A stretch of 64,000 nt of DNA from an uncultured Gammaproteobacteria bacterium (GCA_965231005.1 OZ246405.1:610709-674708); one strand, 5' to 3'; shown: positions 8,533 to 36,302, counted from the stretch's first letter. Notes: generated from the letters alone by a model not told the origin. Numbers and translations: made by a program.

Positions 8533-8929
8533 TGGAGATGCCGGGAATTGAACCCGGGTCTAGACGGGTTAGCGTCATAATCTACATGCATAGCTGCTTT
8601 GTTGTTTCATATGATGCTAAAAAAGCAACAAAATAACATCATACTAAGCCTGAATTACTTCAGACAGCATTGTCAGGCAACAATGTTGTCCTACACTCGA
8701 AAAGTTGAGACCGCCGATCCACTATCGAGTATTATGGGGGCGATCGCCGTGGCACTTAAGCTACAGCAGTTGCGAGTGCTGGAGTGCTGAATGCGTTAGC
8801 AATAGCGCTCTTTACTCGATTGACTAAGTTTGCACTTATGTCTTGCCTTTGGGTATTTACGAGAACAAAGACATTCTCGACATGCATATGTACGATAACA
8901 AGATCCATCTATCGAATCCTGTCATCCCC
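8533..8929 (-). ncRNA. ssrA: tmRNA (ssrA), one-piece, with predicted tag ANLVNRVKSAIANAFSTPALATAVA
   Basis: Minus-strand 5' end GGGGATGACAGGATTCGATAG resembles the tmRNA 5' consensus. The 3' end GACCCGGGTTCAATTCCCGGCATCTCCA is a tRNA-like T-arm/acceptor. Resume context AUAAGU GCA AAC resembles E. coli AUAGUC GCA AAC. The tag ends Ala-Val-Ala-TAA (8833..8756). It lies adjacent to smpB. Confidence 0.75.
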
Positions 8930-11416: not shown

Positions 11417-11636
11417 AACAATTAACAACTAACAATTATCAATTACCAACTTAGTATAGGGTGTTTTTGGCAGAAAGGAATTAGTTATTAGTTACTAGTT
11501 ACTAGTTATTAGCTAACTAAGTCTAGATCTTTCTTGTATTGACTATTAACTATTAGCTAATAGCTAGTAATACCATTCTCAATATAAAGAGTCTTTCTGT
11601 ACTATTTTGCTAATTGTTAATTGCTAATTGTTAATT
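11417..11636. repeat. ~220-bp palindromic AT-rich intergenic element (copy 2 of the element at 3705-3903)
   Basis: Its start (caattaacaactaacaattatcaattaccaacttagtataggg) is the reverse complement of the end of copy 1. Same core ttagttattagttactagttactagttattagctaa. Ends in gctaattgttaattgctaattgttaattATG. Confidence 0.6.
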
Positions 11637-12837: not shown

Positions 12838-13437
12838 ATGTTTCATCGTCCTTTGAGTAACATAACAAAACATTGGAAATTACTACTTCTCCTTGGTATT
12901 GCAACGGCACTTGTTGTATCGTTGATTACACTTATATTTCCTCGTGAATATCGTGCAGATGCAGACGTGCTGATTATTTCTAAATCAAGATATGGAGTTG
13001 ATCCGTACACTGTTGTAAAATCTGCAGAACGTATTGGTGAAAACGTTGCGCAGGTTATGCAAACAAATGATTTTTTTGAAAAAGTCATGAGTCAGCCAGG
13101 ATACTCTATAGACCAGGCTCGATTCCAATATATCCCTGAGCGGAAAAAAAGAAAAAGATGGAATAAAGCACTACAGCCATCAATCGTATATGGAACCGGT
13201 GTGTTACACATTAGTGCATATAGTTTACAACCAGACCAAGCAGCACAATTGGCTGGCGCAAGTGCAGACGCCTTGGTTACTCATGGTTGGGAATATGTTG
13301 GCGGTGATGTTTCAATGAAAATTGTAAATCCTCCTGTTGTAACACAGTGGCCAGTACGTCCAAATATTATTATGAATGGAATTGCTGCATTTTTCATTAG
13401 CATTGGTCTTATGGGAGCAGTCATTGCAAGAAAATAG
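12838..13437 (+). CDS. Wzz-like (polysaccharide chain-length determinant) bitopic protein, tentative
   Basis: N- and C-terminal TM helices. A Pro-rich segment (PPVVTQWPVRPN) lies before the second helix. Confidence 0.35.
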   Translation: MFHRPLSNITKHWKLLLLLGIATALVVSLITLIFPREYRADADVLIISKSRYGVDPYTVVKSAERIGENVAQVMQTNDFFEKVMSQPGYSIDQARFQYIPERKKRKRWNKALQPSIVYGTGVLHISAYSLQPDQAAQLAGASADALVTHGWEYVGGDVSMKIVNPPVVTQWPVRPNIIMNGIAAFFISIGLMGAVIARK

Positions 13438-13538: not shown

Positions 13539-13865
13539 ATGTCGAAAAATCAAACTCCTTTTCTTGAAGAATTTATCATAAATGTTCTCGAAGAAAACGG
13601 CATTAAAGATTTAACTCAAGAACAAAAGAATGTATACATTCCAGAATTTTCTTTGCGTGTGTATAGAAGAATGGGGGACACGCTTATTTCAGAATTGGAC
13701 GACAAACAACTTGATCAACTTTCAGATTTACTCAGCGATCCAAAAGCAACGCCAGAAACATGGTATCAGTTTTGGCAAGCAAGCATTGATGATTTTACAA
13801 AGCAGTTTATGAATGTCCTTATGGAATTCAGATCTGATGTTAGTTCAGCATTGGTGGCAGCATAG
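13539..13865 (+). CDS. Hypothetical protein
   Basis: 108-aa ORF. Confidence 0.35.
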   Translation: MSKNQTPFLEEFIINVLEENGIKDLTQEQKNVYIPEFSLRVYRRMGDTLISELDDKQLDQLSDLLSDPKATPETWYQFWQASIDDFTKQFMNVLMEFRSDVSSALVAA

Positions 13866-13869
13866 ATAT

Positions 13870-14067
13870 ATGTCCACAACAGTTCATCCAAAAGATAAAG
13901 ATACTAACAAACGTAATAAACGTTTGAATATTTTGATTGATGAATTACACAAAGAATTACGAGCAGTCCAAAAAGATGCGATTAGTCTCAGAATGAGTGC
14001 ACAAAAAGTTGTAGACAAGCAAAACATGAAGCACGTATTAGAGAAATTATTAGACAATGGTTCATAG
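13870..14067 (+). CDS. Small hypothetical protein (start placed after the upstream stop)
   Basis: Frame MSTTVHPKDKDTNKRNKR... follows the upstream stop. The ORF-track 13813 start overlaps the previous gene. Confidence 0.3.
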   Translation: MSTTVHPKDKDTNKRNKRLNILIDELHKELRAVQKDAISLRMSAQKVVDKQNMKHVLEKLLDNGS

Positions 14068-17000
14068 AATCATTCTTTTAACTATGAGTCCAGATGCAAA
14101 CAATGTAGTCGAGTTATTTCCTGAAAATGAATATGGTCCTGATCGAGGACCTGTTAGTGATGAACAAAAAGAAGCCAATCGTAAGGCAAAAGGTGAGCTT
14201 GGTGATATTTTGAGAAAACTAGAAGATCTCCAATCATTGCGCGATAAAGTTGAAACAACACTTATTGAAGATGTTGAAGCACTTATTCAGCATATTAATA
14301 ATAAGGAATATCACGATGAAGTTGTTGTTCAAGTAAAAGAACTTCGAGAAAAACTCGACGAAATTAATAAAAAAATGGAAGGGGTTTCAAAGTCGATTGA
14401 AACACGAGAAGTGCGAAAGCAACGAGAGAGTTTTGAGTTTACAGTGTCAGATGTTCTTGATGTCGTCGGAAGAGATAAGCTGCGAAATATTATGGTTCAT
14501 TTTCCTGATATGAATGCAGGCGAGCGGCAGCAGGTGTTTACAGGACTTTTTGATCACCTGGATGAAGAACAATCCAAAAATTTAAATAGAGTAAGAAGAA
14601 AAAAAGCGTTCGAGGTGTTTGAACCTTTTTTTCAAACTGCAAAACAAAAAAAAGCATTGGACGAAGCAAAGCGCGCACCAAATGATCAAGTGAGAGTGAA
14701 ACTATTTGAAGCAGCAGGGCTTATTGAAGATGAGACTGACAGAGAAAACGTGCTTCATACACTTTCAGAAATTTCTTTTTCTGATGATGACAATAAAGCA
14801 TTTATTAAAACATGGAAAGATAATATGGCCTTGCAAGCGCTTGATTCTGTTGAGTTTTATGAATATGGTGCTGCAGAGCAAAAAGTATTAGAACTTGCAG
14901 CTATAGAGGCAAAAAAAGGAAAAAAGAAAAAGAAATATAAACAAACCAGTCTAAAACAAAAGTTTGTAAATCTTGGAAAAGGAATAAAAAATTTGGCAGT
15001 TGCAGCTGGACAGCATGTTAAAAAAGAGTGGTGGGCTATGGCTCCAGCTGCGACATTGGGTCTTGTTGCAAGACACGCTGCATTGTCAACAACTCCTGAT
15101 TTTTATGCAAAGGCACTTGAATTAACAGGGGATGAATCTCAGTCTGCATTTTTAGCAGCTGGTGGTGCAGCAGCACTTGGGACATATGCACTTGCAGAAC
15201 ATGGGATTCGAGCATTGAAAACTCGTCTTTCCGTAAAGCCTGACAAAGCATTTGCAGAAGTTTCTGGTTTGGCAAAAGACATGTACGTCTCTGATCAGAA
15301 AAAGGGTGGAGAATGGGTCCTTGCAGGACATATTAGTCATATATTGCAACATGGAGGAAAAGAAGGACAGCAAACACATGAACGGCATGTAGAAGTCCTC
15401 AAAGTAATTGCAAAAGAATTGAGAAAAAATGGAGAAAAAGTTGAAGCAAATAGTGAGTTTATGAAAGCAGCACTACTTGCTATTGATGTAAAGGATAGAA
15501 AACGTGGTGGACAGTCAATTCTTTCAGAAAAATACCAGTCTCTTGGATTTATTCGTCGGACTATTGCAGAGGTTCGCGATCAATTTTATACAAAAAAGTG
15601 GAAAGACATTGGTGTTGGTGGTTCTGCGTTACAATGGATGTCCGGTGCTGCATTACATACATTACACAAAGGCTTGATTGGTGGAACAATTGCATGGCCA
15701 ATGCAGCGACCAGAAATTTTTGGTTTGTTTAGTGAGCGATTGGCAGCACGCTTTGGTGCAGCTGCAGTACCTGGCTGGTTACAAGAATTAGCAACAAAAA
15801 GAGGGGAACAAAAAGAAGATAAATGGGAAATTGAGAGAAAACGTCTTGAAAAAGCAGTAAGTCCTGAAGCATATGGAAAATTAACTTTATATAAAGCAAC
15901 AAAAGTTTCAGAAGATCAATTGTTAGATATTCAAAGAGAAATCACAGAATTGAATTATTACATTAGCACCTGGAGTGATGTAAGCTCTCTCTCATCAGAT
16001 GGGAATAAATTAAAGCGTGCTGGAAGAAAAATTACAACCAATGTGCGTAAACAATTTCAAAGTGATTTGCTCGATGTGTGGCCACGGTATAAAACTGCTG
16101 CACTTGGTTTGCATCAAGAATATGAACGACTATATGAAGAAAAAAGACAGGAACTGATTGAAAAACAGTTAGCAAAAGTTTCCAAAAGTTTGTCAGAGGC
16201 AGGCAAAACAAAGCAAAGAGAAAAAATGCAAGAAGCCTTGCCGGAAAAATTGAAGAAACGAGAGAAAAAGAGAAATAAGAATATTCCGAAAAAGACATTT
16301 GACATGAAATTGCCAGATGAAAAAACACCAACAGAGCGATTGTTAGGAAATTCAAAAGTTGAGGTTGCTGATAGAAGAAAAACATTAGTACAAGGGTTGA
16401 AAATGGGAATGCTTGCTGCAGCATTTGGAAAGGCATTTGATATGGCACGAGTTCATTTTCCACATATTTTTGATAGACCACCAGAAGTCATTCCGCATGG
16501 CGCGTTTGCAGGTTGGGATGAAGATCCATTTATTGATCATGATCGGTATGACCAATATGGAAATGAAATTTTTCCAGACGATGCGTATCCGTCACAAGGA
16601 GAAGAAGCATCTCCGCCTGCTGAAACACCACAAGAACCAACTGTTCCAAAAAGAGATAGGACAAAAGAAGAAATTCGACGTCTTGCAGGTTTGGGTGGTC
16701 GTTCTGGTCGAGTTGAAGATATTCCAGTGCAGGGCGAAGACGCACTCGTGACAGAAAAAGACGAAGTTGCAAAAGGAACAGGACTTGATTCAAGTAAGGA
16801 TGGAAGTGCTGCACTCATTGGTGAACCAAAAGAACCAACATGGGAAGAAAAGATTGCAGAGCGTGGAAGTCCTGCAGAATCACTTTCAAAAACAGAACAG
16901 TACATGAAATATTTGATGAGAGAAGAACCTAAAAAATATTCAAAAGCAGATTTTAAATTATTTCAACACATGCAATCTATTTTGGAAAAACAAAATGAAT

Positions 17001-17332: not shown

Positions 17333-17539
17333 AAAATTAGCCCTTTGACTCGTCACTTCGTTCCTCGCTAAGGACAAGCAAAAAACAAAGAACAAAAAAC
17401 AAGTATTTTAATTGGTATTATTCTTGAAAAAAATTACTAAAATGGCTTAAATAAGTCATTTTTTTCATTTCTTTATGTTTCTTACCTTTTTACTTTTTAG
17501 CATTTTCGCTTTTTTGCATTTTTAGTGATTGCAAAGTAC

Positions 17540-17568
17540 TTGACAAAATGGTAAAAATATGGTACAGT
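17540..17568 (+). promoter_or_regulatory. Sigma70-like promoter TTGACA-17-(TGg)TACAGT, copy 1 of a duplicated promoter cassette
   Basis: tacttgacaaaatggtaaaaatatggtacagtttgc matches 21721-21756 except for 2 nt. Confidence 0.55.
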
Positions 17569-17720
17569 TTGCTGTTTACAGTGCCCATATTGTGTATGAG
17601 CAGCATTTGTTGTGATCTCTTAGATTGTGACAGTTGCCAAGCAATATTTTTTCGCTGAAGTAAGCTAAAAAGTGCTGTAAAAAAATGCACATTACAAATA
17701 CATGATGCACCTATGTGTAT

Positions 17721-17776
17721 TGGATTAGTCAATCAATGGATATTCTTTTTGCTGTCTTTTGATTGACTAACCCAAT
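17721..17776 (+). promoter_or_regulatory. 18-nt-arm inverted repeat ATTGGaTTAGTCAATCAA-N21-TTGATTGACTAAcCCAAT abutting the SD of the first island gene
   Basis: Arms match with one mismatch. The SD aaggagg follows 2 nt later. Confidence 0.5.
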
Positions 17777-17791
17777 CAAGGAGGTGCAGTC

Positions 17792-19882
17792 ATGTCACCA
17801 GATCAGAAAAAACCTGATGGTGGTGCACATGGTAGTGCACCGCCGAAACGATCAACACTCGAACTTCATGCTGACAAGATCGTCAGCTTGGTCCAACAAG
17901 ACGGGCCAGAGGAGAACCCCATGACCGACAAGAAGACTGATACAACAACGCCGGGTCATGAGGTTCATGATTCGAATTCTGAAACCCCACCCCCGCTGCC
18001 AAGTGTGCTCGACTCGCTTGCTCCTGAGGACATAGCAAGAATAATAAGAGGAGAATCACAACCACTGCGAAGTGAATTGGTGCGATGTCCGAACTGTGGT
18101 GCTGTCTACCCTATGGATCAGGGAAAGGTCCAGGGTGGTTCTGAAAAGGATCAACAGTGTGTGTTGTGCCTTCATGAATTCACCCTCGGTGATGACAATG
18201 AAGCACAAGCAACAGCACAGTCTGAAACCCCACCACCAGTGCCTTCTTCGAACGTTCCGGCGGACAATGAGAAAATCCAATGTCCGAACTGCAAAACCAC
18301 ATTTCGGTCCATTGAAATCCTGCTTTGGGATCGCAATTACAAGTACGTCGTCTGCAGCCACGGATTCACCATCGATAACGACACTGAAGCACAAGCAACA
18401 GCACAGTCTGAAACCCCACCCCCACCCCCACTTCCGCTTCTCATTGGGGACAATGCCCCAGGTGGGAAGAACGTGACTTGCCCAAACTGCGATAAGGTCT
18501 ATTCACTGGATCCAGCTGACTTTGTAGGTGGTTTCCCGAACGTCTTTCAGTGCGCCCTATGCAATCATTGCTTCACTATCGATGATGAAACTGACGCACA
18601 GGATGACACACCACCTGCAATTCCGACCGCGCAGCAGCGTGCAGACAGAACAGGACTGACTGAGCCGTACAAGCCACTCGCCGACATCAAAGATCCAGAT
18701 GCTGATACGTCCACGATTCGTGAAACCATGCCAAGTCACCCGGGCCAAGCTCGTCGCGCTGAAAGCGATCACTACACGCAGGATGAACTTCCTCGCGTGG
18801 AAGATGAACGTGAAACACGGCAAGACCTTCCTGTTGTCACTGGCGATGATCAAGACACCAAGCCTGACATGGACGTTGTCAAAGCCGAAGACCTCGATGA
18901 AGACGATGCTGCTGAACTGGAAAAGGATGATGGCAAGGAAGCTGAAGAGCTGCCCCCGCCGATTTCAAGTCCCATGTTCAGTCCGGAACTGCGCAAACCA
19001 AACCCTGGTTTTCAGCTGCCTCCTCATCTCGAAGAGGTCGTTCGACTCTCTGCTGCTTCAACTCCCGATTCTCTTGCTTCCGGCGATGACGATCCATTCG
19101 GCGACGGCGGAGATCCCTTTGCTGGCCCAGGCACGAATCCCTTTGCTGTTGACGCAGATGATCCCTTCGGTGCTGAAGTTCCGTTCGGTCCAGGAGATGA
19201 TCTTGGGATGAAGGACGAAGACTACGGTGGTCCGAATGATTCTGTCGACGATGGTGATGAATTGCCTCCTGTCATGCCGGCTGATTCCAGTAAGGCGGCT
19301 CCCAAGCCGTCGCTGATTACTGGTTCCAGACCAAGGTTTCGTCCGACTGGACCTGTGCCTTCGGTTCACGATCAAGACGACAAAAGTGGCCCCCCGCCTC
19401 CTCGTCGTCAAGATCATCGAAAGACAATCCGAGTTCCACGTCATCGGCCGACTGCTCGTCCAGTGCCACCACCACCTCCTGGCCCGGCTCCCATTCGAAC
19501 GCCGACGCCTAGTGGTGGTTCACCCATTCCTGCATCTGCACCTGTTTCTACTCCGCCTCCGGCTGCGAGTACAACAGGACCGTCTGCTGCACCAACCCAG
19601 GCTGCTGCGGCTCCGCCCGCACAGTCACAACCGCCGGCTCCAACTGGGCCAGTGGTTGGTCCGACGGCATCAAGTGGCAGTGCTACTACACCGGTCAAGA
19701 CCAACAAGACCGTTGTGTGGATCATCGCCATTCTGATTGTTGCATGCCTGGCTCTCAATGCCTTTAGCGTGTGGCAAAGCAGAAACATCAGAAAGAACGT
19801 CATCGCGGTTCTGAAACATCGCGCTGGCATCCAAAAGGTCATTCAGGCTCCAATGCCGAAGACCAAGGGGGAAGAGAAATGA
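17792..19882 (+). CDS. Hypothetical protein with N-terminal Cys4 zinc-ribbon-like repeats, an acidic/Pro-rich disordered region and a C-terminal TM anchor
   Basis: GC-rich ORF with a strong SD. Three recognisable CPNC-x15-24-C-x2-C units, each ending in an acidic linker with EAQATAQSETPPP in the first two. A near-identical 35-nt segment recurs at 18197 and 18381. C-terminal helix TVVWIIAILIVACLALNAFSVW. Confidence 0.55.
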   Translation: MSPDQKKPDGGAHGSAPPKRSTLELHADKIVSLVQQDGPEENPMTDKKTDTTTPGHEVHDSNSETPPPLPSVLDSLAPEDIARIIRGESQPLRSELVRCPNCGAVYPMDQGKVQGGSEKDQQCVLCLHEFTLGDDNEAQATAQSETPPPVPSSNVPADNEKIQCPNCKTTFRSIEILLWDRNYKYVVCSHGFTIDNDTEAQATAQSETPPPPPLPLLIGDNAPGGKNVTCPNCDKVYSLDPADFVGGFPNVFQCALCNHCFTIDDETDAQDDTPPAIPTAQQRADRTGLTEPYKPLADIKDPDADTSTIRETMPSHPGQARRAESDHYTQDELPRVEDERETRQDLPVVTGDDQDTKPDMDVVKAEDLDEDDAAELEKDDGKEAEELPPPISSPMFSPELRKPNPGFQLPPHLEEVVRLSAASTPDSLASGDDDPFGDGGDPFAGPGTNPFAVDADDPFGAEVPFGPGDDLGMKDEDYGGPNDSVDDGDELPPVMPADSSKAAPKPSLITGSRPRFRPTGPVPSVHDQDDKSGPPPPRRQDHRKTIRVPRHRPTARPVPPPPPGPAPIRTPTPSGGSPIPASAPVSTPPPAASTTGPSAAPTQAAAAPPAQSQPPAPTGPVVGPTASSGSATTPVKTNKTVVWIIAILIVACLALNAFSVWQSRNIRKNVIAVLKHRAGIQKVIQAPMPKTKGEEK

Positions 19883-21558
19883 ATACGTTTATCAAGGTGC
19901 TACTCGCCATTCTCATCGGGGTTGTGGTCGCTGTGTCCGGCTACTTCGCATGGGAAACCATGAACACGAACAAGGCGCTCCTCGCTGAACTGAACAAGAC
20001 CGACAACGGTGCCCAGGAGGACACCAAGGTCAAGCCGGCGCCGAAGAAGTCGGCTGTCAAGAAAGCTGACAAGGCTTCCACGTCCCAGGCCAAGACGGCC
20101 GGCGACAAGAACGACCCCAAGAAGGTCGAGGAAGCTGCGAAGGCTGCCGAAGCCAAGAAGAAGGCCGAGGCCGAAGCTGCTGCCAAGGCTGCTGAAGCGA
20201 AGAAGAAGGCTGACGAAGCTCGCAACGACTGGGATGAAATCAACTCCCGTGGCGACGACCAACTCAGAGCTGAGAAGTTCGACGAAGCGTTCAAGACCTT
20301 CAAATCCTTGATCGGACACGAGCATCAGAATCATGGACTGGCTTACTACAACATCGCCTGCCTGTTCTCGGTGCAGTCTGTGTCAGACAAGCTCAAGGGC
20401 AAGAAGAAGGCGATTCGCAAGAGCAAGAAGCAAGCCCTCCACTACCTGGCTCAGGCCTGGGTAGCCGGCTACGACGACCTCGAATGGATGGAGAAAGACG
20501 AGGATCTCGATTCGATCCGCAAGACCCGCGGCTACAAAGAGATCAAGCGTCTGGCAGTGGAAAAGGGACTGGTTCGGCTCCCTGCGCCGGCCACCGAAGA
20601 CGTCGCCAAGAAGGCCAAGGATGAGCAGAAGGAACCCACGCCCAAGCTGACCGGCATCCACGCCCTGCGTGCCATGCCGATCAAGGGAGTTGCCGATTCT
20701 GACGAAGCCAGCAAGGCTGACAAGGACGCCAAGCGCATCGCCAACGCCAACGCCAAGAAGGTCAAGGGCAAGAAGGTTCGCAAAGGCAGCCGCGGCATCT
20801 CGTTCCTGGCCAAGGCTCGAGCCGAAGCCAAGCGGATGTACGCCAAGCTCCACAAGGACCAGAAGGCTCGTCGTGCAGCGCTCAACCGTGCGATCGCCCG
20901 ACTCAAGCGTGGCTACAAGCGCAAGAGCGATCTTGACAAGCAGGACGTTGACGACGAGATCGCAGAGCTCAAGCGAAAGGAGCAGGAACAGTCCGACGAC
21001 GAGGATCGGAAAGCCAAGGAAGAGGCCGAAAGGATGCTCGCCGACGGCAAGACCCAAGACGAGGTCAAGGCTATGTACGATGCTCTGGAGCGCAAGCAAC
21101 AGGCTCGTCGTGCAGCGCTCCTCAGCAAGATCGCGGACGAGCAAAGGCAGGCACGACAGCAGCGTCAGGATGATGCAGTCGACCTTCGCGATGAGATCGC
21201 CAAGCTGCGCGAAGCCGACAAAAAGGCTGACACGCAGTCCGCGGCAGCTGCCAAGGATCACGTGCAAGCCTTGTTCGACAAAGCGCAAGCCGCGACCAAC
21301 CGCGCCAACGCAAAGCGCGCGCGTCAACAGCGTCAGCGTGCGGCAGCGCCCTCGCGTCCGAGCTCGCCGCCCAGCCGTCCGGCTTCGGGTGGTTCGTCCA
21401 GCCTCGCACATGCGCCTGCGGCAGTTTCCAGCTGTCCGTATGGTGGAGACGAGGCCAACTGCGTCAAGAAGACGGTCGCGTACTTGACCAAGTTCGGTAC
21501 GCCCCTGGCCGATGCCAAGGGGAGTGCCAAGGCCAAGTGCAGCGCGCGCTGTCTGTAG
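19879..21558 (+). CDS. Membrane-anchored TPR/coiled-coil protein ending in a four-Cys module
   Basis: The ATG overlaps the upstream TGA (ATGA), indicating translational coupling. N-terminal TM helix. TPR-like GLAYYNIACLFS. Lys/Ala/Glu-rich coiled coil. C-terminus SCPYGGDEANCVKKTVAYLTKFGTPLADAKGSAKAKCSARCL. Confidence 0.55.
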   Translation: MNTFIKVLLAILIGVVVAVSGYFAWETMNTNKALLAELNKTDNGAQEDTKVKPAPKKSAVKKADKASTSQAKTAGDKNDPKKVEEAAKAAEAKKKAEAEAAAKAAEAKKKADEARNDWDEINSRGDDQLRAEKFDEAFKTFKSLIGHEHQNHGLAYYNIACLFSVQSVSDKLKGKKKAIRKSKKQALHYLAQAWVAGYDDLEWMEKDEDLDSIRKTRGYKEIKRLAVEKGLVRLPAPATEDVAKKAKDEQKEPTPKLTGIHALRAMPIKGVADSDEASKADKDAKRIANANAKKVKGKKVRKGSRGISFLAKARAEAKRMYAKLHKDQKARRAALNRAIARLKRGYKRKSDLDKQDVDDEIAELKRKEQEQSDDEDRKAKEEAERMLADGKTQDEVKAMYDALERKQQARRAALLSKIADEQRQARQQRQDDAVDLRDEIAKLREADKKADTQSAAAAKDHVQALFDKAQAATNRANAKRARQQRQRAAAPSRPSSPPSRPASGGSSSLAHAPAAVSSCPYGGDEANCVKKTVAYLTKFGTPLADAKGSAKAKCSARCL

Positions 21559-21577
21559 TCTGATCTGGTGAGAACCT

Positions 21578-21645
21578 GGCTTCCCGGTGCTCGTACGTTT
21601 ATTCGTACTTGCATCGGGAAGCCTCCTCACTTTCTTCTTTTTCTT
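21578..21645 (+). terminator. Terminator hairpin ggcttcccggtgctcgtacgtttattcgtacttgcatcgggaagcc plus a T-rich tail
   Basis: Long near-perfect stem immediately after the stop at 21558. Confidence 0.5.
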
Positions 21646-21723
21646 GAAAAGAGGGGAAAGCAGGGAAAATACCTTATTTAAGCCAAAAAAGATAAGTTTT
21701 TATGGTCTATAAAGCCTAAATAC

Positions 21724-21752
21724 TTGACAAAATGGTCAAAATATGGTATAGT
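21724..21752 (+). promoter_or_regulatory. Sigma70 promoter TTGACA-17-TATAGT, copy 2 of the duplicated cassette
   Basis: Near-identical to 17540-17568. Confidence 0.55.
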
Positions 21753-21943
21753 TTCTGGTCAAAATTGATAAAATATATACCCTTATCTATTGGCGTGCCA
21801 GTGCATAATCCATGCAATATGCAGTGCGCGCGAGTGTGATAAGGTACAGAAAATGTACATCGTACATTCTTTGTGTGTCACACCGCTTTCCAGACGTTTT
21901 AACGTCATCCAACAGGTTCATTACATTACTACATCACTACAAC

Positions 21944-22074
21944 TGTTCGATCGGTAAACAAGTTCATAATATTTGTGTACTGCTTTACCGGTCGAACATT
22001 TCACATCGCCTTTCTGACCGGGGGCACAGTTAATTCCAAGGTACGTTACCAAGGAACAAATTGACTGCGCCTGG
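21944..22074 (+). promoter_or_regulatory. Conserved ~130-nt structured 5' leader element, copy 1
   Basis: About 90% identical to 24885-25014. It contains a 14-bp stem GTTCGATCGGTAAA/TTTACCGGTCGAAC and a variable sub-hairpin. Confidence 0.5.
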
Positions 22075-22112
22075 TTTTCTGGGCGACGTGAAACAACAGA
22101 AGGAGGTGCGCA

Positions 22113-23402
22113 ATGGCGTACGCCGTTCGAAAAACCCGATCCGGGGGTGCCGGACAATACGTTTCAGTTTTTTCCGACCGTGCTGCGGTTCTCCGAAAAA
22201 TCGCGCGAGGGATGATCCGCAAGGGTGCGTTCATTCGCGTGGTTCCGGACACGGCTGCTACCAACGATGGCGAGAAGGCCGCAGTCAAGGCTGATCTGGA
22301 TAACGCGGATTTCGTGCTCATCGAGAACCATCCGCATTTCGCTGGCATCAACTTCCCGGCGCCTGCTGACGCTTCGGCTGCTGCGACTGCGGATGCTGCG
22401 GCCACCCGTGCGAATGCCAATGCTGCTGCGGCCAATGTGACCGTTGCGGAGGCTACTGCTGCTCAGGCTCAAACCGAAGCCGACGCTGCTAACGCTCGTG
22501 CCAACGCTGCTGATGCCGCCACTGCTCAGGCCAACGCCGAGGCTACTGCTGCTCAGGCTCGTGTCGACGTTGCCAACGCTGCTGCTGCTCAGGCCAACGC
22601 CGAGGCTACTGCTGCTCAGGCTGCTGGGGATGCTGACGCTCAAGTTGCTGCTGCAGAGGCTGTTGCGGAGGCTGCTGCTGCTCAGGCCGATGCTGCTCAG
22701 GCACATGCCGACGCGGTTCAGGCTGCTGCGGATGCTGCTCAGGCTGCTGCGGATGCTGCTGACGCTGCTACCCAGGCTGGTGCTGCTGCCGGTCAGGCTC
22801 TGATCGCTACCAGTCAAGCTCGGGATGCTGCTGCTGAGGCTGAGGCTGAGGCGCTCGAGGCACAGGCCGATGCGGACGATGCTGCTGCCTTTGCTCAGGC
22901 TCAGGCCGACGAGCGGGCCAATCGCCGTTCGGTTCGGTTCGTCGCGTGGCTGCGTCGCAACTGGAAGAAGGTTCTGCTGGCTCTGCTGGTTCTCCTCCTT
23001 CTCGGTTGCGTGTGGTTCTTCTGGAGCAACATCAAGGCCCTGGTCACGGGGGGTGGTGGTTCGCCGCCGCCTTCGGTGGTGAACCCGCCGACCCCACCGA
23101 CGCCGCCCGTTCCGACGCCGCCCGTTCCGCCGCCGCCGGCTGCGACTCCGGTCGTTCCGCCGCCGACGGTGACGCCTCCGCCACCGCCCGCGACTCCGCC
23201 GGTTTCGCCGACGGTCACGCCTCCGCCGACCCCGCCGACTTCGGGGGGCACGGCAGCGCCGACTGGACAGCCTGGCTGTCCGTTCGGTGTGGGGTACACG
23301 GACTGTTACACCAAGACGGTGGCCTACCTGGTCAGCCATGGTGTGGCGACTTCGGACGCGCAGGACAAGGCGCGCGAGAAGTGCGGACCGCGTTGCAGGT
23401 GA
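22113..23402 (+). CDS. Bitopic protein with an Ala-rich repeat region, a Pro-rich linker and a C-terminal four-Cys module paralogous to the one at 19879
   Basis: SD aggagg. Repeats AATAAQANAEATAAQA. TM helix VLLALLVLLLLGCVWFFW preceded by a basic stretch. PPTPP linker. C-terminus GCPFGVGYTDCYTKTVAYLVSHGVATSDAQDKAREKCGPRCR. Confidence 0.55.
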   Translation: MAYAVRKTRSGGAGQYVSVFSDRAAVLRKIARGMIRKGAFIRVVPDTAATNDGEKAAVKADLDNADFVLIENHPHFAGINFPAPADASAAATADAAATRANANAAAANVTVAEATAAQAQTEADAANARANAADAATAQANAEATAAQARVDVANAAAAQANAEATAAQAAGDADAQVAAAEAVAEAAAAQADAAQAHADAVQAAADAAQAAADAADAATQAGAAAGQALIATSQARDAAAEAEAEALEAQADADDAAAFAQAQADERANRRSVRFVAWLRRNWKKVLLALLVLLLLGCVWFFWSNIKALVTGGGGSPPPSVVNPPTPPTPPVPTPPVPPPPAATPVVPPPTVTPPPPPATPPVSPTVTPPPTPPTSGGTAAPTGQPGCPFGVGYTDCYTKTVAYLVSHGVATSDAQDKAREKCGPRCR

Positions 23403-23824
23403 TGTAGCCTGTTGGAGGGAAGCCCGCTACCGGCGCATGCATTCGTGTGTGTGTCCGGTAGCCCTCCAACCGCTTTCTTTTATAAAAGAGAAAGAGGTTG
23501 GGGGAATACAAAATTAGAAATTGGAAATTAGGGATTAAGTGTATTGACATATTGAGTAATAGAGAAAAGAAATTTTCTTTAGTACTCAGGGTGTCATGTA
23601 GACATTATTGTAAAATTACAATGTGTCTCGTGTCCTGATTAGACAGGTTCATTATAATTTAGTTGAAGAATAACTATCTGGTGGGTAAAAAGATAATATA
23701 CATATGTTACTTTTTTTCTCACCAGATAGTGGCACGTGCCGCTTGTTTCTTCGTCGCCCTTGGGGCATTTCACAAATGGCCCCATCGGTGAGGAGGGGCA
23801 AGGCAACAACAACAGGAGGACGCG

Positions 23825-24724
23825 ATGAACATCCGTCTCGTTTCGTTCATGATCGTCGCATCGGTGACGGTCGGTTTCATTTCCATCAACTCATTCGCGC
23901 AGGCACCGGCCGACTACCCAGCCGTTCGCGACGATGCGCACAAGGGTGCTTCGCTCGCCGAGTCCAACGCCAAGCGCCTGACCGCCCTGGAGAAGCGGAT
24001 CAAGCGGCTCAAGCGCGCCAAGGCTGCGGCCAAGGCCAAGCACACGGCCAACCCGACCCCCGCCAACAACGTCGCTCTGAAGGCCGCGGTCCGCGCGCTC
24101 GACGAGGCCAAGAAGGCAGGTCTGTCCATGTGCGCCCTGAAGACTGGCGAGGATTTCCGGCACTGCATCGACGTCGTGGAAGGCAAGGTGTTCGAGGTGG
24201 AGAAGGACTCCATCCGGATGGCCGCGCTGCTCGCAGTCGGCTGCATCGTGAAGGAGAACAAGTCCACAGATCCTTCCAAGGGTTCGAAAAAGGGCGCATC
24301 CATCACGACCACCGAGCTCGTCTGCGACAAGGACAAGGCCAAGAAGGCGCCGCGCTGCATCCGGTTCAAGCGCTTCAGCAAGCACGCGCACACCTACTTC
24401 GACGTCGGCGGTGACAACTGCAAGGAAGAAGACAGCAACCCGCTGCCCAAGAAGCCGGCGACTCCGCCCAAGCCCAAGGCCGAACCGTGGTCCAAGGGCA
24501 AGCGTTTGCTGGCCAGCGCTGGCATGTGCCTGCTGGCCGGTGGTGTGCTCGCTGTTCCTGGTTACGTCATCGGCGACGCCATCGAGGGCGGTCACTGGGA
24601 GACCAATCCGGAGACCGGCAACGACGACTGGTATGCGCCCAAGGGTCCGCTCGGTGCTGGCATCGGCGGTCTGACCGGCTGCCTCAGCGCGTTCGCGGGC
24701 ACATGGAGTGCGACGAGCGAGTAG
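23825..24724 (+). CDS. Secreted Cys-containing hypothetical protein
   Basis: SD aggagg. Signal peptide MNIRLVSFMIVASVTVGFISINSFAQA. Seven Cys residues. Gly-rich hydrophobic C-terminal segment. Confidence 0.5.
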   Translation: MNIRLVSFMIVASVTVGFISINSFAQAPADYPAVRDDAHKGASLAESNAKRLTALEKRIKRLKRAKAAAKAKHTANPTPANNVALKAAVRALDEAKKAGLSMCALKTGEDFRHCIDVVEGKVFEVEKDSIRMAALLAVGCIVKENKSTDPSKGSKKGASITTTELVCDKDKAKKAPRCIRFKRFSKHAHTYFDVGGDNCKEEDSNPLPKKPATPPKPKAEPWSKGKRLLASAGMCLLAGGVLAVPGYVIGDAIEGGHWETNPETGNDDWYAPKGPLGAGIGGLTGCLSAFAGTWSATSE

Positions 24725-24884
24725 CCTTTCTTCAACTGCTGAATCTGTCGGGGGTTGGTAGCATGTTCATTCATGTCTGTCAACCCCCGTCGGAATATCT
24801 TTCTCTTTGTAAAAAGGGAGAGATGAACGATTATTGTTCATTACAATTGAGAAACTACTACAGAAACATCTTGAATACCTTTTG

Positions 24885-25014
24885 TGTTCGATCGGTAAAC
24901 AAGTACATAACATTTGTGTACTGCTTTACCGGTCGGACATTTCCACATCGCCTTTTTGACCGGGGGCACAGTTAATCCGTGGCGTGTTGCCGCGGACCAA
25001 ATTGACTGCGCCTG
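24885..25014 (+). promoter_or_regulatory. Conserved ~130-nt structured 5' leader element, copy 2
   Basis: See 21944-22074. The same position relative to the downstream SD and start. Confidence 0.5.
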
Positions 25015-25071
25015 AGAAATTGGGCGATTGTGGAATGATTCGGGCGAGACCCGAGAAAAGAGAGGTAACTC

Positions 25072-28000
25072 ATGAACAGCAAGCTCAACACGATTTCCGT
25101 TTGTTTCGTGGCGCTGATGATCGTTTTCGGGTGCAGCCCGGACGCGAGCTACAAGCCCAACGACCCCAAGAACCCCAACCCGGCCCGCAAGGCCGATGCC
25201 AACAACAGCGACACCAGCAGCGCGGATGCGGGTTCGAGCGCGGATACCGGTCAGCCGACCGATCCGTGCGCCGATCCCAAGTTCTGCAACGATGGCAAGG
25301 TCTGCACGGCCGACACCTGCAAGGACGGCAAGTGCAAGCACACCATCGACGCGACGCTCTGTGATGACGGCAACCCCTGCACACATGACCTGTGTGACGA
25401 CCTGGGGATCTGTGTGAACAAGGCTCACGAAGGTTCGTGCCAGGACGGGAATGCCTGTACTGTGGGTGATCATTGCAAGAATGGCACCTGCCAGTCGGGA
25501 AAGAACATGCCCTGTCCCAACGAGAACTCGTGTGTCATCGCAACCTGCAACCCGAAAGAAGGCAAGTGCAACTACGAGCCCAAGAGCGGTGACTGCAACG
25601 ACGGCAACAAGTGCACGGTTGGCGATTTCTGCATCAACCAGAAGTGCAAGAGCGGTTTCAAGAAGTTGGACTGTGATGACAAGAACGTGTGCACGACTGA
25701 CAGCTGCAATCCAGAAGACGGTTGTGTTCACAAGCCGATCGACCTTCCCTGCAGCGACAACAGCTCGTGTACCATCTCGGATAAGTGCAAGGACGGAAAA
25801 TGCGTGGGCCAGGTTGTCAACTGCGACGACAAGAACCCGTGCACGACCGACTCGTGCGATCCGGCGGCGCCCCCGGGCAAGGCATGCAAGCACGTGAACA
25901 ACACCAGCGAGTGCGACGACGGCAACAAGTGCACGTCCGGCGACGTTTGCCAGGATGGTCAGTGTAAGAAGGGAACCACGTCGGTCGATTGCGACGACGG
26001 GAACCCGTGCACTACCAATTCCTGCGACGCCAAGGTCGGCTGCCAGAAGCTCAACAACAACAACTCGTGCGACGACGGCAACAACTGCACCATCAATGAC
26101 AAGTGCTTTAACGGCAAGTGCAACTCCACTACCAAGAAGTGTGGCGACAGCAACAAGTGCGTCACCAACACGTGCGACCAGGCAACTGGCGCGTGTGTGA
26201 AAAAGGAGCTGTGCGACGACGGCAAGGCCTGCACCGAAAACACGTGCGACATCAACACCGGCAAGTGCGAAAACCCTGACAAGAAGTGCGACGACGGCAA
26301 GGCCTGCACCAAGGATAGCTGCAACACCACCACGGGCAAGTGCGAGTACGAGATGATCGTTGGTGCGAACTGCTTCTGCAAGTTCGACTCCAACTGTGAC
26401 GACGGAAACGAGTGCACTGTCAGCGCATGCGATAAGGCGACTGGCAAATGCGCGCTCGCGAAGAAGTACAGCGGGACCTCGTGTGACGACGGGAACCCGT
26501 GCACCACCTCGGACAAGTGCGACCCCAAGACCGGCAAGTGCTCGTCGGCAAAGGCCACGGCCTGCGACGACGGGAACCCCTGCACGGACGACTCCTGCGA
26601 CCCCACGGTCGTTGGCGGTTGTGTGGCGGTGAAGAACAACAAGCTGTGTGACGACGGTGACGCGTGCACCAAGGGTGATATCTGCCTGGACGGCGCGTGT
26701 AACCCCGGCAAGGCCCCGGTCTGCGACGACGGCAACATCTGCACGGATGACAGCTGTGACTCGAAGCTCGGATGCAAGAACACGGCCAACTCGGCCAGCT
26801 GCTCGGATGGGAGCGCCTGCACCTCAAACGACAAGTGCGAGGGCGGGAGCTGCAAGAGCGTTGCGGTGAAATGCGACGACTCCAACCCCTGTACCGACGA
26901 TAGCTGCGACGCGAAGGTCGGCTGCAAGTACGCCAAGAACACCAAGCCGTGTAACGACGGTGACGAGTGTACCATCAGCGAGGTGTGCAAAGACGGCAAG
27001 TGTGGTTCTGGCAAGGCCAAGTCGTGCGACGACAACAAGAAGTGTACCATCGACTCGTGCGACAAGGACAAGGGCTGCCAGCACAAGCAGATTTCCTCGG
27101 CGACCTGCTGCGCTTCGGACGCTGAGTGCGACGATAAAAAGCCGTGCACGGTGGACAAGTGCGATCCGAAGGAAGGTTGCAAGAACACCAAGAAGCTCTG
27201 CTCGGACAACAACCAGTGCACCGACGACGTGTGTGATCCCCAGTCTGGAGATTGCAAGCACACGAAGTTCAGTGGACCGGCCTGCGACGACGGCAACAGT
27301 TGTACCAAATCCGAGAAGTGCGAAAAGGGCAAGTGCGAAGCTGGCTTTACCATCAAGTGCAACGACAACAAACCCTGCACCAAGGATACGTGCGACACCA
27401 AGGGCGGATGCGTCTTCACCAAGACCGTGGATCCCTGCGACGACGGGGACGCGTGTACGAATGGAGACAAGTGCGCCAATGGCGAGTGCGTGTCTGGCAA
27501 GCAGATCGTCTGCGACGACAACAAGGTCTGCACGACCGACAGCTGTGACTCCAAGAAGGGGTGCGTGTTCGCGAACAATTCGGATGCCTGTACGGACGGA
27601 AACGCCTGTACACCGAATGACGTCTGCAAGGACGGCAAGTGCTCGTCGCAGCCTGAGAACTGTGACGACGCGAACGCGTGTACCAACGACAGTTGTGACA
27701 AGAGCAAGGGCTGCAAGCACATCAACAACACCAAGGTCTGCAACGACGGCAACAAGTGTACGGACAACGGAGTCTGCAGTGGCGGCGCCTGCAAGCCGGG
27801 CAAAGCCATCAACTGCGACGACGGCAAGAAGTGCACGACGGATAGCTGTGACCCGACCACGGGCAAGTGCAAGAACGTGGCGCTGGTGTGCGATGACGAC
27901 GCCTGTACGGATGGCGATGGCAAGTGTGACGAGAGCACGGGCAAGTGTGCAGTGGGTCTTCCCAAGAACTGCACTGACACCGACGTGTGTACCAAGAATT

Positions 28001-28593
28001 TCTGCTCGGAAGGAACCTGCAAGGTCTCTCCGAACTGCGATGACGGGAACGCATGCACGGCTGATAGCTGTGACCCAAAGAAGCCCGAGAAGGATCAGTG
28101 TTCGCACGTCCCGATCTCGGGTTGCAAGTCGGTCGAGGTCAAGCTCTCCGTGGTTTTTTCTGAGATGTTCAAGATGGAAGCCGCACCCAAGGGTGGCAAC
28201 TACGTCCGGTTCTTCGTCAAGAAGTGCGAGGCCAAGGCTGCTGACGGCTCGTCCGTCATGTTGCTCAAGCCTGGCTCCTTCTACGGAGGCGCTGAGATCA
28301 AGAACAGCTCGAAGCTCGAGTACACCAATCCTGCAAAGGTCCAGGACTTCGTGCAGATCCCGAAGAATGCCTGCTGCATCAACATCGTAGGGTACCAAAG
28401 CAGTAAGATCTCCAATCCTTACGGGGACTCGAAGATCTGGGCTTTCAGTACGACTCCCAATACCAAGACCCACAACATGGAGCCGGTCCTCACGACCAGC
28501 AATGGACTGACGTACAAGTTCACGTTGAAAGACGTCCATGACAACGGTGTGGGGGGATACGACGCGTGCAACAGCGAAGTCATCTCCAAGTAG
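25072..28593 (+). CDS. Giant lipoprotein with ~60 tandem Cys-rich repeats (CDDGNxCTxDxCD...) and a distinct ~170-aa C-terminal domain
   Basis: Signal/lipobox MNSKLNTISVCFVALMIVFGCS. Regular ~12-aa repeats with an invariant Cys-Asp-Asp-Gly-Asn-x-Cys-Thr pattern, reminiscent of Myxococcales-type Cys-rich repeats. The repeat register confirms the + frame. Confidence 0.65.
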   Translation: MNSKLNTISVCFVALMIVFGCSPDASYKPNDPKNPNPARKADANNSDTSSADAGSSADTGQPTDPCADPKFCNDGKVCTADTCKDGKCKHTIDATLCDDGNPCTHDLCDDLGICVNKAHEGSCQDGNACTVGDHCKNGTCQSGKNMPCPNENSCVIATCNPKEGKCNYEPKSGDCNDGNKCTVGDFCINQKCKSGFKKLDCDDKNVCTTDSCNPEDGCVHKPIDLPCSDNSSCTISDKCKDGKCVGQVVNCDDKNPCTTDSCDPAAPPGKACKHVNNTSECDDGNKCTSGDVCQDGQCKKGTTSVDCDDGNPCTTNSCDAKVGCQKLNNNNSCDDGNNCTINDKCFNGKCNSTTKKCGDSNKCVTNTCDQATGACVKKELCDDGKACTENTCDINTGKCENPDKKCDDGKACTKDSCNTTTGKCEYEMIVGANCFCKFDSNCDDGNECTVSACDKATGKCALAKKYSGTSCDDGNPCTTSDKCDPKTGKCSSAKATACDDGNPCTDDSCDPTVVGGCVAVKNNKLCDDGDACTKGDICLDGACNPGKAPVCDDGNICTDDSCDSKLGCKNTANSASCSDGSACTSNDKCEGGSCKSVAVKCDDSNPCTDDSCDAKVGCKYAKNTKPCNDGDECTISEVCKDGKCGSGKAKSCDDNKKCTIDSCDKDKGCQHKQISSATCCASDAECDDKKPCTVDKCDPKEGCKNTKKLCSDNNQCTDDVCDPQSGDCKHTKFSGPACDDGNSCTKSEKCEKGKCEAGFTIKCNDNKPCTKDTCDTKGGCVFTKTVDPCDDGDACTNGDKCANGECVSGKQIVCDDNKVCTTDSCDSKKGCVFANNSDACTDGNACTPNDVCKDGKCSSQPENCDDANACTNDSCDKSKGCKHINNTKVCNDGNKCTDNGVCSGGACKPGKAINCDDGKKCTTDSCDPTTGKCKNVALVCDDDACTDGDGKCDESTGKCAVGLPKNCTDTDVCTKNFCSEGTCKVSPNCDDGNACTADSCDPKKPEKDQCSHVPISGCKSVEVKLSVVFSEMFKMEAAPKGGNYVRFFVKKCEAKAADGSSVMLLKPGSFYGGAEIKNSSKLEYTNPAKVQDFVQIPKNACCINIVGYQSSKISNPYGDSKIWAFSTTPNTKTHNMEPVLTTSNGLTYKFTLKDVHDNGVGGYDACNSEVISK

Positions 28594-28776
28594 TTCTCAA
28601 GAAAATGATCACTCCCTCCTGCGCAATGTGATCTGCCGTGGACGGGCTCGAGCCTGAAACTCGAGTCCGTCCCGGCCGCGCAACTCCGAATATGATTCAC
28701 GTCTATTCGGAGCTCCCCAAGGTTCATTTTTCCTCAGAAAAGTGGACACTTGTAAGAGTTAAACATAGGTACAGGA

Positions 28777-28800
28777 AACAAGATATATATCTTGTTTTTT
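28777..28800 (+). terminator. AT-rich hairpin aaacaagatatatatcttgtttttt
   Basis: Palindromic stem plus T6. Host-like composition after the two GC-rich island hairpins at 28640-28720. Confidence 0.45.
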
Positions 28801-28802
28801 GT

Positions 28803-28831
28803 TTGAATAATAGTGTTTTTTCAAGTATACT
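28803..28831 (+). promoter_or_regulatory. Sigma70 promoter TTGAAT-17-TATACT placed for a leaderless transcript
   Basis: The -10 ends 6 nt before ATG 28838. The ORF-track GTG start at 28832 would lie inside the promoter. Confidence 0.45.
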
Positions 28832-36142: not shown

Positions 36143-36302
36143 GGTTTTTTACCTAAAATAAGCTAAATTAGTGTACTCATAATAACATATAATTGTACCA
36201 CATTTAAGCGTTTTTGTCAAGTCCTCGGGCTGGTCTTTGAGATATAAAAAAATGGCTTAAATAAGCTATTTTTTAAAGACTGGAAATTTACATTTTTTTG
36301 TC

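Follow-up and report, generated by a model that had tools for sequence, protein, structure and literature searches.

The DNA analysed here, referred to as the window, is a stretch of 64,000 nt (GCA_965231005.1 OZ246405.1:610709-674708) from a record titled 'uncultured Gammaproteobacteria bacterium', and the segment between positions 17,333 and 28,831 contains an island of five GC-rich genes, A to E, within an otherwise AT-rich genome. Comparison with related genomes suggests, with a probability of roughly 0.6 in our estimate, that this block is a lineage-wide, vertically inherited and fast-evolving envelope cluster of Candidatus Magasanikbacteria, with GC-rich coding sequences that are held by selection. 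A preliminary description made from the window alone had interpreted the same genes as a horizontally acquired cell-surface module, possibly from a Myxococcota-like donor, that had been rewired onto host promoters; on the sequence comparisons reported below, recent acquisition is refuted by the clusters found in relatives. The five genes are as follows.

17792-19882, + strand: gene A, 696 aa, predicted tail-anchored protein with zinc ribbons
19879-21558, + strand: gene B, 559 aa; its ATG overlaps the TGA of A (ATGA)
22113-23402, + strand: gene C, 429 aa; transmembrane (TM) segment at residues 286-308
23825-24724, + strand: gene D, 299 aa; signal-peptide-like N-terminus
25072-28593, + strand: gene E, predicted 1173-aa lipoprotein; lipobox VFGC, Cys21

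Composition of the island and identity of the host

The window has a mean GC content of approximately 35%. In 1-kb bins, the GC fraction is 0.52-0.62 between 18 and 28 kb and 0.31-0.41 in nearly all remaining bins. Genes A to E (17792-28593) have 54-66% GC and a third-position GC fraction (GC3) of 0.45-0.84 (A 0.45, B 0.75, C 0.60, D 0.84 and E 0.82), compared with about 35% GC and a GC3 of 0.17-0.31 in native genes (n=33 genes); GC1 and GC2 of the block are elevated alongside GC3. The binned GC and GC3 values confirm the previously described switch to GC-ending codons from 17792 to about 28720 between AT-rich flanks. Codons that end in G or C have a share of 70-100% in the island, as opposed to 3-30% among native genes; B, D and E favour them for all amino acids (Lys AAG 0.90-0.97, Gln CAG 0.69-1.0, Ile ATC about 0.9, Leu CTG/CTC), opposite to native usage. 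Amino-acid content, which had been raised as a possible source of the high GC3, therefore cannot cause the bias. The island spacers are AT-rich, as had been reported, with GC fractions of 0.32 before A, 0.42, 0.42 and 0.45 between genes and 0.43 past E. Within gene C, GC3 is 0.68-0.80 after the TM segment versus 0.40-0.64 before it, and gene A is low throughout, a hint that extracytoplasmic parts tend toward higher GC3.

The host is a member of Candidatus Magasanikbacteria, within the Candidate Phyla Radiation (CPR)/Patescibacteria. All best named matches of the native initiation factor 3 (IF3) belong to this lineage, at 59-66% identity, and the DUF5667, DUF11, GT4 and Wzy genes in the window are consistent with a CPR bacterium. 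Seven TPA records of metagenome-assembled genomes (MAGs) with the title 'uncultured Gammaproteobacteria bacterium' (loci L012, L013, L015, L021, L022, L025 and L031) likewise contain Magasanikbacteria-type loci, with Wzz-like proteins at 45-62% identity and the same synteny; these titles are probably wrong.

Conservation of the cluster across Magasanikbacteria

The island is set in a surface-polysaccharide locus, with a Wzz-like gene upstream and genes for Wzy, three GT4 proteins, GHL15 and a methyltransferase downstream. Species representatives in GTDB were scanned using the native Wzz-like gene as an anchor, yielding 22 loci that are nearly all labelled Magasanikbacteria. Of these, 13-14 have a GC-rich block (55-70%, against a background of 30-45%) situated 1-8 kb past the Wzz-like gene in the downstream direction. 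The recurrent gene order in relatives is a zinc-ribbon protein (200-300 aa), a secreted protein (approximately 210-250 aa, often ending in an aromatic residue) and a Cys-rich lipoprotein, with GC3 values of 0.7-0.87. Identity is 25-64% among the zinc-ribbon proteins of five species, 52% between the secreted proteins of two species and 38-45% among the lipoproteins, E included, with the repeats in the lipoprotein slot varying by species between Dicty_CTDC, thrombospondin type 3 (TSP_3) and EGF/MopE. Clusters of the same composition thus occur at the syntenic site in at least 13 other species (L010/L022 and no fewer than 12 more), contrary to the proposal of an island acquired by this genome; a GC-rich cluster shared with relatives had been set out beforehand as evidence refuting horizontal transfer, and the synteny comparison revealed such a cluster.

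The closest other species (locus L010) is 75% identical to the window in IF3, 56% in the Wzz-like protein and 69% in another native protein, and it retains the native order PPDK...L20-L35-IF3-SmpB-AI-2E...Wzz. At the site equivalent to the island, its GC content is 50-65% over positions 1-3500 versus 34-39% elsewhere, and three genes, C', D' and E', are present in the order and orientation of the window. The 250-aa C' protein is 31% identical to C over the N-terminal 77 residues (E 3e-5) and shares its architecture of a low-complexity region, a TM segment and a Cys-rich C-terminus, here starting with GCPF. D' is a 427-aa signal-peptide protein with Gly-rich, hydrophobic C-terminal segments resembling those of D, although the sequence similarity is not significant (E 0.09), and E' is a Dicty-repeat lipoprotein. 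Evolution is much faster in the island proteins than in the native ones beside them, as seen between loci L028 and L032, where the Wzz-like proteins are 91% identical and the zinc-ribbon proteins 43%. Within the literature available for searching, no description of GC-rich clusters in Magasanikbacteria was found, and nothing on project PRJEB17505.

Turnover of synonymous sites in GC-rich genes

The persistence of the GC bias was examined through the third bases at four-fold codons of conserved residues in island orthologue pairs, with 36-86 sites in each pair. Observed identities were close to those expected from independent draws (observed/expected 0.38/0.34, 0.44/0.37 and 0.43/0.43), with GC3 at 0.78-0.86 in both partners; the native Wzz-like gene is also near saturation (0.37 vs 0.31) at 91% protein identity. 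With synonymous sites turned over and GC3 still near 0.8, neutral decay toward AT should have erased the signal. Across the islands of seven species, spacer GC is 0.38-0.49, coding GC 0.55-0.65 and background GC 0.31-0.41, and the presence of AT-rich spacers beside GC-rich coding sequences ties the enrichment to coding sequence, arguing against a purely regional bias. Ordinary optimisation for high expression is unlikely to explain the bias, since the IF3 gene (GC3 0.24) and the ribosomal-protein genes have A/T-ending codons. Together, and given small counts from related sequences, these comparisons make a strong but not conclusive case that the GC-richness is held by selection on the coding sequence or on the mRNA.

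Expression signals of the island

The cluster uses expression signals distinct from those of the rest of the genome, comprising a 13-nt motif, structured leaders, Shine-Dalgarno (SD) sequences, 3' hairpins and the G/C-ending codons described above. The motif, GTTCWTTACAATT, contains TACAAT and is found in the window at three positions.

21916-21928, + strand: motif copy GTTCATTACATTA, 2 mismatches to GTTCWTTACAATT, 197 nt before the ATG of C
23647-23659, + strand: motif copy GTTCATTATAATT, 178 nt before the ATG of D
24836-24848, + strand: motif copy GTTCATTACAATT, exact, 236 nt before the ATG of E

No copy was found in the 52 kb of native DNA in the window, and a degenerate form of the motif gave 2 exact matches, both in the island, versus 0.04 expected. 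Across relatives, the motif precedes almost every island gene on the sense strand, 80-260 nt upstream. When at most one mismatch was allowed, 20 of the 22 evaluable matches, from 14 loci, preceded DNA of at least 50% GC, against a background of 10.7% (nominal binomial probability approximately 1e-17, from sites that are not independent). Conservation is limited to the 13-nt core, with no conserved -35 element in 30 aligned sites; the TACAAT core suggests that the motif may function as a promoter element. Part of the D-E spacer, the segment CCCGTCGGAATATCTTT...AACGATTATTGTTCATTACAAT around the motif, is conserved as DNA in the D'-E' spacer of L010, although the D proteins of the two species barely align. 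Instead of having been rewired onto host promoters, the island genes carry their own conserved and island-specific promoter-like motif. An integron cassette array was considered and rejected on the basis of the conserved gene order, the lack of an integrase in Pfam scans of the window and the GTTCWTT of the motif, which is unlike the attC core GTTRRRY.

Translation initiation signals are similarly divided. Counting GGAG, GAGG or AGGA at -20 to -4 as SD-like, and taking native starts from independent public gene calls, such sites precede 2/40 native genes and 5/6 GC-rich genes in the window, and 0/17 native and 4/4 GC-rich genes in L010. The preliminary description was thus correct that native genes mostly lack an SD; its statement that all five island genes have a canonical GGAGG holds for A and C (AAGGAGGT) and for D (CAGGAGGA), but not for B, which has only GGGGG, or for E, which has GAGAGGT. 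About half of Parcubacteria have been reported to lack the anti-SD (PMC9297842).

The transcript ends and leaders of the island, with hairpins as predicted from the sequence, are arranged as follows.

17333-17791, + strand: spacer before A, GC 0.32; leader of A approximately 224 nt
17439-17464, + strand: terminator-like hairpin with T-run AAAATGGCTTAAATAAGTCATTTTTT, host-type
17540-17568, + strand: sigma70-like promoter of A, TTGACA-17-TACAGT with TG
21578-21623 (GC-rich) and 21630-21660 (CUUUCUU...AGAGGGGAAAG), + strand: paired 3' hairpins after B
21724-21752, + strand: sigma70-like promoter of C, TTGACA-17-TATAGT with TG
21940-22100, + strand: structured 5' leader of C, with a long, nearly perfect hairpin and after it a second, branched domain
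23411-23494 and 24749-24823, + strand: two-hairpin layouts after C and D
24881-25042, + strand: structured 5' leader of E, second copy of the leader repeat
28635-28676 (GC-rich) and 28684-28712, + strand: island 3' hairpins after E
28774-28800, + strand: AT-type intrinsic terminator GGAAACAAGATATATATCTTGTTTTTTG at the island 3' end (28635-28800)
28803-28831, + strand: native Wzy promoter-like site, TTGAAT-17-TATACT, ending 6 nt before the ATG (28838)

Both sigma70-like promoters lie in a 34-nt repeat (17537-17570 and 21721-21754, 94% identical), and none was seen before D or E, so that the near-consensus sigma70 promoters previously attributed to the island spacers stand for A and C only. The island leaders span 80-360 nt. 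Those of C and E share a repeat of approximately 150 nt, of which 92 nt are 94.6% identical, and both fold more stably than shuffled sequences (z -7.4 for C and -10.0 for E), with helices kept despite differences between the copies (e.g., GGUA/UACC vs GGC/GCC). No spacer matched Rfam 15 at the gathering score, and at E <= 1 only chance-level matches were seen for the leader. After the stop codons of B, C and D, a GC-rich hairpin is followed by a CUUUCU...AGAAAG hairpin. No repeats linking the two borders of the island were found.

The motif that had been described as common to island spacers and a native spacer near 36250 was recovered, with TGGCTTAAATAAG occurring exactly at 17443 (+), 21673 (-) and 36253 (+). 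At these sites, AAAAATGGCTTAAATAAGNTATTTTTT forms a small hairpin with a T-run that has the look of a host-type terminator and is present in the window as three exact 13-mer copies (17439-17464, 21666-21685 (-) and 36249-36274), with weaker sites at 4453-4465 (-) and 52448-52460; it was not found in the loci of relatives. The native gene at 28838 had also been described as leaderless in appearance, and its TATACT, which ends 6 nt upstream of the ATG, would agree with a leaderless mRNA. Leaderless translation as a general feature of native genes was considered and dropped: among 57 of them, -10-like hexamers show no enrichment 5-12 nt before the start, and this Wzy gene is the single one that fits.

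A second, isolated GC-rich gene is located in the window at 4596-5423 (275 aa, GC 0.59, GC3 0.70) and has sharp compositional edges. It is preceded by the consensus promoter TTGACA-17-TATACT with TG (4484-4512), a leader of approximately 85 nt and the SD GGAGG, is without the GTTCWTTACAATT motif and has no Pfam, NCBIfam, PHROG or PADLOC match; the independent contig k127_29052 carries it too. In relatives, further GC-rich genes (GC3 0.54-0.85) are scattered through the AT-rich loci (L013 11360-12826, L026 277-3139, L033 3267-4977, L010 12095-12595 and L032 3385-4629); these have no mutual BLAST similarity and no assigned function, and the one in L013 is preceded by the motif variant GTTCTTTAAAATT.

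Gene products

All five products are predicted from sequence features to be membrane-anchored, secreted or lipid-anchored, and the TM, signal and lipobox features support the earlier view of a coherent membrane and secreted set. In gene A, zinc ribbons of the CxxC...CxxC type occur three times (MJ0042/Zn_ribbon_4; 48.1 bits for PF13717 with a cut-off of 30.3, and 28.9 bits for TIGR02098 with a cut-off of 20.9). The product also has a long disordered stretch, acidic and rich in Pro, and a TM segment at its C-terminus (641-663), in agreement with its description as a tail-anchored zinc-ribbon protein. Gene B had been described as translationally coupled to A and as containing TPR, coiled-coil and four-Cys regions, all of which were recovered: the ATGA overlap is followed by a TM anchor (5-27), a Lys/Ala-rich region, a TPR_END_plus domain (approximately 125-237; NF047558, TPR end-of-group, 37.9 bits with a cut-off of 32, residues 178-222), a coiled coil, a Ser/Pro linker and, at the C-terminus, a 4-Cys module. 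The relatives of the TPR_END region sit on contigs of 65-70% GC. The 4-Cys module is shared with C (43% over 47 aa, E 5e-8), which supports the description of C as an Ala-rich bitopic protein paralogous to the Cys module of B; the remainder of C consists of an N-terminal domain of approximately 77 aa, Ala-rich repeats, the TM segment and a Pro-rich linker that precedes the C-terminal module. Against 1.84e9 representative proteins, C gave 27 weak matches that involve only its Ala-rich, TM and Pro-rich low-complexity parts, none of them at or below 1e-10. Gene D, previously called a secreted Cys protein, has a signal-like N-terminus, 8 Cys and Gly-rich hydrophobic C-terminal segments (227-253), and no relative of it was found in GTDB genomes or among 5.8e9 proteins.

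For gene E, the description as a 1173-aa Cys-repeat lipoprotein was retained, while the figure of about 60 repeats was not, since a motif count gives approximately 36 repeats of 24 aa, with 156 Cys. Its N-terminus, MNSKLNTISVCFVALMIVFGC followed by SPD, matches the lipobox [LVI][ASTVI][GAS]C and is predicted to be that of a lipoprotein, and its C-terminal domain of approximately 155 aa is Cys-poor and beta-rich. The repeats match Pfam Dicty_CTDC (PF00526) at 303.2 bits (cut-off 27, E 1.5e-92, 18 scored stretches) and not the TIGR02232-like family that had been anticipated, as no NCBIfam family, TIGR02232 included, was recovered for E at E <= 0.01. The named homologues of E come from Myxococcales and Deltaproteobacteria MAGs, and the best homologue (P0001) is only 44% identical and lies in an ordinary GC-rich proteobacterial context that lacks A-D. 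In the public (ENA) gene call for an independent contig (L007 111-3809, equivalent to window 24841-28539), E is replaced by two antisense open reading frames (ORFs) of 350 and 571 aa, and an exact look-up of the E protein in public records was empty for this reason.

Among A-E, no integrase or transposase domains were found with Pfam or PHROG, and the only PHROG match, Zot-like and weak, fell in the TM/Pro-rich part of C. Nothing was found when A, C and E were scanned against viral sequences, no PADLOC defence-protein model was matched, and PDB sequence searches returned no useful relative. AlphaFold2 models built without an alignment were too poor for use (predicted local distance difference test 51 for D and 43 for the C-terminal domain of E).

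Alternative explanations

Recent horizontal acquisition from a GC-rich, Myxococcota-like donor, with the composition not yet ameliorated, would account for the codon usage typical of a high-GC bacterium, the SDs that native genes almost entirely lack, the MJ0042 zinc ribbons, the Myxococcales and deltaproteobacterial homologues of E and the GC-rich contigs bearing the TPR_END relatives of B. It is nonetheless very improbable, given the similar clusters that 13 or more other species of the lineage have at this site, the motif and D-E spacer kept between species, the saturated synonymous sites, the distance of the best match of E and its lack of synteny, the absence of an integrase and of a flanking direct repeat, and the lack of detectable homologues of C and D outside the lineage. 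Additionally, E has the highest Lys content among itself and its 120 best homologues (11.9% versus a median of 3.2%), with 92% of its Lys codons being AAG, a combination that is unlike a recent arrival from a GC-rich genome. The proposed Myxococcota-like donor stands only insofar as the recognisable domains (Dicty_CTDC, MJ0042 zinc ribbon and TPR_END) are common in GC-rich bacteria such as Myxococcota, recent transfer being contradicted by the relatives, and an ancient foreign origin of the domain families is plausible. The main rival is a recombination hotspot that is refilled repeatedly, at which lineages import or replace surface genes from GC-rich bacteria, perhaps from their hosts. This alternative agrees with the change of Cys-rich family in the lipoprotein slot between species (Dicty, TSP_3, EGF/MopE), with the scattered, unrelated GC-rich genes (window 4596-5423, L013 11360-12826, L026 277-3139 and L033 3267-4977) and with the many islands reported in CPR genomes (PMC12455944). 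We consider it unlikely, as the gene order, the zinc-ribbon and secreted families, the motif before each gene and part of the spacer are common across species, which fits vertical descent, while no homologues of C or D were found among the 1.8-5.8 billion proteins searched, viral scans were blank and mobility genes were not found.

A regional mutation or repair bias, or GC-biased gene conversion, acting without selection on the genes, is less probable again than the hotspot. That a whole block of at least five genes is affected, with GC1 and GC2 raised too, is expected from such a process, and the many internal repeats of E could undergo conversion. However, the 230-550 bp spacers within the block stay at a GC of 0.38-0.49, near background, in seven species, gene A has a GC3 of only 0.45 although it lies inside the block, isolated single GC-rich genes with sharp edges occur elsewhere, and the non-repetitive B and D are as biased as E. 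Lastly, an assembly or binning artefact, with a GC-rich contig of another organism joined to an AT-rich CPR contig, would produce an abrupt switch in composition, and breaks in the short-read contigs do fall within genes B and C. A single contig of 1,232,850 bp is on record with A, B and several native proteins. The left junction is 100% identical in two MEGAHIT assemblies from different runs (ERR2281800 and ERR2281801; PRJEB17505), both of which carry the sequence from the native 1091-aa gene across the spacer, A and B to the start of C. For the right junction, identity is likewise 100% in a third contig and a Logan contig, which carry E, the 3' region and the native Wzy and GT4 genes. With both junctions identical across independent assemblies, the chimera envisaged in the preliminary description is ruled out; the same mosaic also appears in MAGs of many species from unrelated studies, and host-type terminator and promoter elements lie within the block, leaving any artefact of this kind a negligible chance.

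Several observations weigh against a vertically inherited cluster maintained by selection. The GC bias of gene A is weak, its GC3 being the lowest of the five; each pair in the saturation test offers few sites, and the L019/L016 pair falls short of saturation (0.56 vs 0.29); and the A/T-ending codons of the IF3 and ribosomal-protein genes leave high-expression optimisation unable to account for the bias. A and B were not found at the equivalent position in the closest relative, and 5 of the 22 loci have no GC-rich block within 10 kb, although in these five the native genes downstream of the Wzz-like gene are too divergent to place the island. Orthology of the Cys-rich proteins is blurred by their repeats, and the differing families in the lipoprotein slot could reflect replacement by transfer. 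A covariance model of the leader found no convincing copy in 24 other loci, with one weak match (L025). The promoter role of the motif is drawn from sequence, and the function of the products from signal peptide, lipobox, TM and repeat features only.

Comparison with known systems

The repeats of E are most similar to those of Dicty_CTDC proteins, which include Dictyostelium EcmA/EcmB and proteins of Myxococcota-like MAGs. The likeness consists of approximately 36 tandem 24-residue repeats with 4 Cys each and extends to thousands of bacterial homologues at 34-45% identity. Dicty_CTDC proteins are extracellular, disulfide-rich and rod-like, and E, judged by its repeats, probably resembles them. 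It differs in being predicted to be lipid-anchored, shorter (1173 vs 1500-2000 aa), unusually Lys-rich and encoded in an AT-rich CPR genome, as well as in a C-terminal domain that has no Pfam match, with the four homologues that were read carrying other C-terminal regions. No solved structure and no PDB sequence relative of E were found.

The block shares with classical genomic islands an atypical GC content, codon usage and set of regulatory signals, and the encoding of surface proteins. In contrast to the amelioration model of horizontally acquired islands, reportedly that of Lawrence and Ochman, it lies at the same locus and is GC-rich across many species with saturated synonymous sites, and it has a conserved lineage-specific cis motif and no integrase, tRNA border or direct repeats. 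The bldA/TTA system of Streptomyces is a rare-codon regulon, and by analogy the translation of an island gene set written in codons rare for its genome could depend on particular tRNAs; the island bias spans all amino acids and not one codon, so the analogy would be one of mechanism only. Genes of the S-layer and ompA type have long structured 5' untranslated regions that stabilise the mRNA, multiple promoters and strong terminators. The island resembles these in its leaders with 5' hairpins, the tandem promoter-like sites of C, strong SDs and double 3' hairpins, but E is a Cys-repeat lipoprotein and not a self-assembling protein, and the extreme codon bias is foreign to this paradigm. SD-poor genomes, in which an SD survives at only a few genes, include those of Bacteroidetes and of some Parcubacteria. 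Native genes here are nearly without SDs (2/40 in the window and 0/17 in the relative) in the same way, and the difference is that one specific conserved gene set keeps strong SDs.

Chromosomal setting and other observations

The tRNA and tmRNA genes nearest to the island are 8-10 kb away and not at its borders. These are a tRNA-Asp(GTC) gene at 6726-6799 (-) and a tmRNA gene at 8530-8929 (-) with the tag ANLVNRVKSAIANAFSTPALATAVA, inside which the public annotation places a spurious 50-aa ORF. A phosphoenolpyruvate (PEP)-utilising enzyme at 567-3704 (PPDK_N, mobile and PEP-binding domains) is extended at its C-terminus by approximately 240 extra aa, which include a hydrophobic segment and a domain containing Cys, and the proteins of relatives have the same length (1010-1036 aa). 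Near-identical copies of TTGCTAATTGTTARTTGCTAA at 3879-3903 and 11603-11627 lie immediately 5' of the unrelated native ORFs 3904 and 11628, and a similar run of TAATTAG repeats is present in L023 at about 10170-10210. In L010, a 159-aa native gene is tandemly duplicated with identical upstream sequence (12937-13416 and 13714-14193) in one assembly; other assemblies of this species (L009 and L011) have one copy or none.

Proposed function and implications

The sequence features of the products suggest that the cluster may encode an extracytoplasmic coat or an attachment/adhesion module, and the fast evolution of the island proteins, typical of exposed interacting proteins, favours such a module. 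E would form a long, lipid-anchored and disulfide-rich repeat stalk, while B and C would be bitopic proteins whose long linkers carry a shared, small 4-Cys module on the outer side of the membrane, and D would be a small secreted or membrane protein. A, predicted to be tail-anchored with its zinc ribbons facing the cytoplasm and translationally coupled to B, would be the sole mainly cytoplasmic member. Selection for GC-rich coding sequence could have either of two candidate causes: the mRNAs may be stable and SD-dependent, owing to 5' hairpins, a GC-rich body and double 3' hairpins, or translation may be slowed or gated by tRNAs through codons that this genome rarely uses, the inverse of bldA/TTA control. 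It is also conceivable, at very long odds, that the island genes are matched to a GC-rich partner cell, through T-DNA-like delivery or through translation that uses host-type tRNAs or ribosome features. If this were true, the episymbiont would possess a second, host-directed expression code for envelope-type proteins, namely the lipoprotein, the Cys-rich matrix repeats and, in relatives, aromatic-ended secreted proteins resembling outer-membrane barrels.

As a lineage-wide cluster maintained by selection, the island would represent a compositional island without recent transfer, in which a GC3 of about 0.8 persists, despite complete turnover of synonymous sites, in genomes of 31-41% GC, contrary to the expectation of amelioration, and it would provide a natural test case for selection on synonymous sites. 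Composition-based detectors of horizontal gene transfer will label such clusters as foreign, and genes of this type are likely under-represented or mis-annotated in CPR MAGs through assembly breaks and antisense ORF calls. The 13-nt motif, the structured leaders and the SDs amid SD-less native genes delineate a candidate regulon in an uncultivated CPR lineage, which would amount to two modes of gene expression in one small genome. Fast-evolving surface proteins are expected in the attachment of CPR bacteria to their partners, and the motif may provide a handle for finding the genes that encode them.

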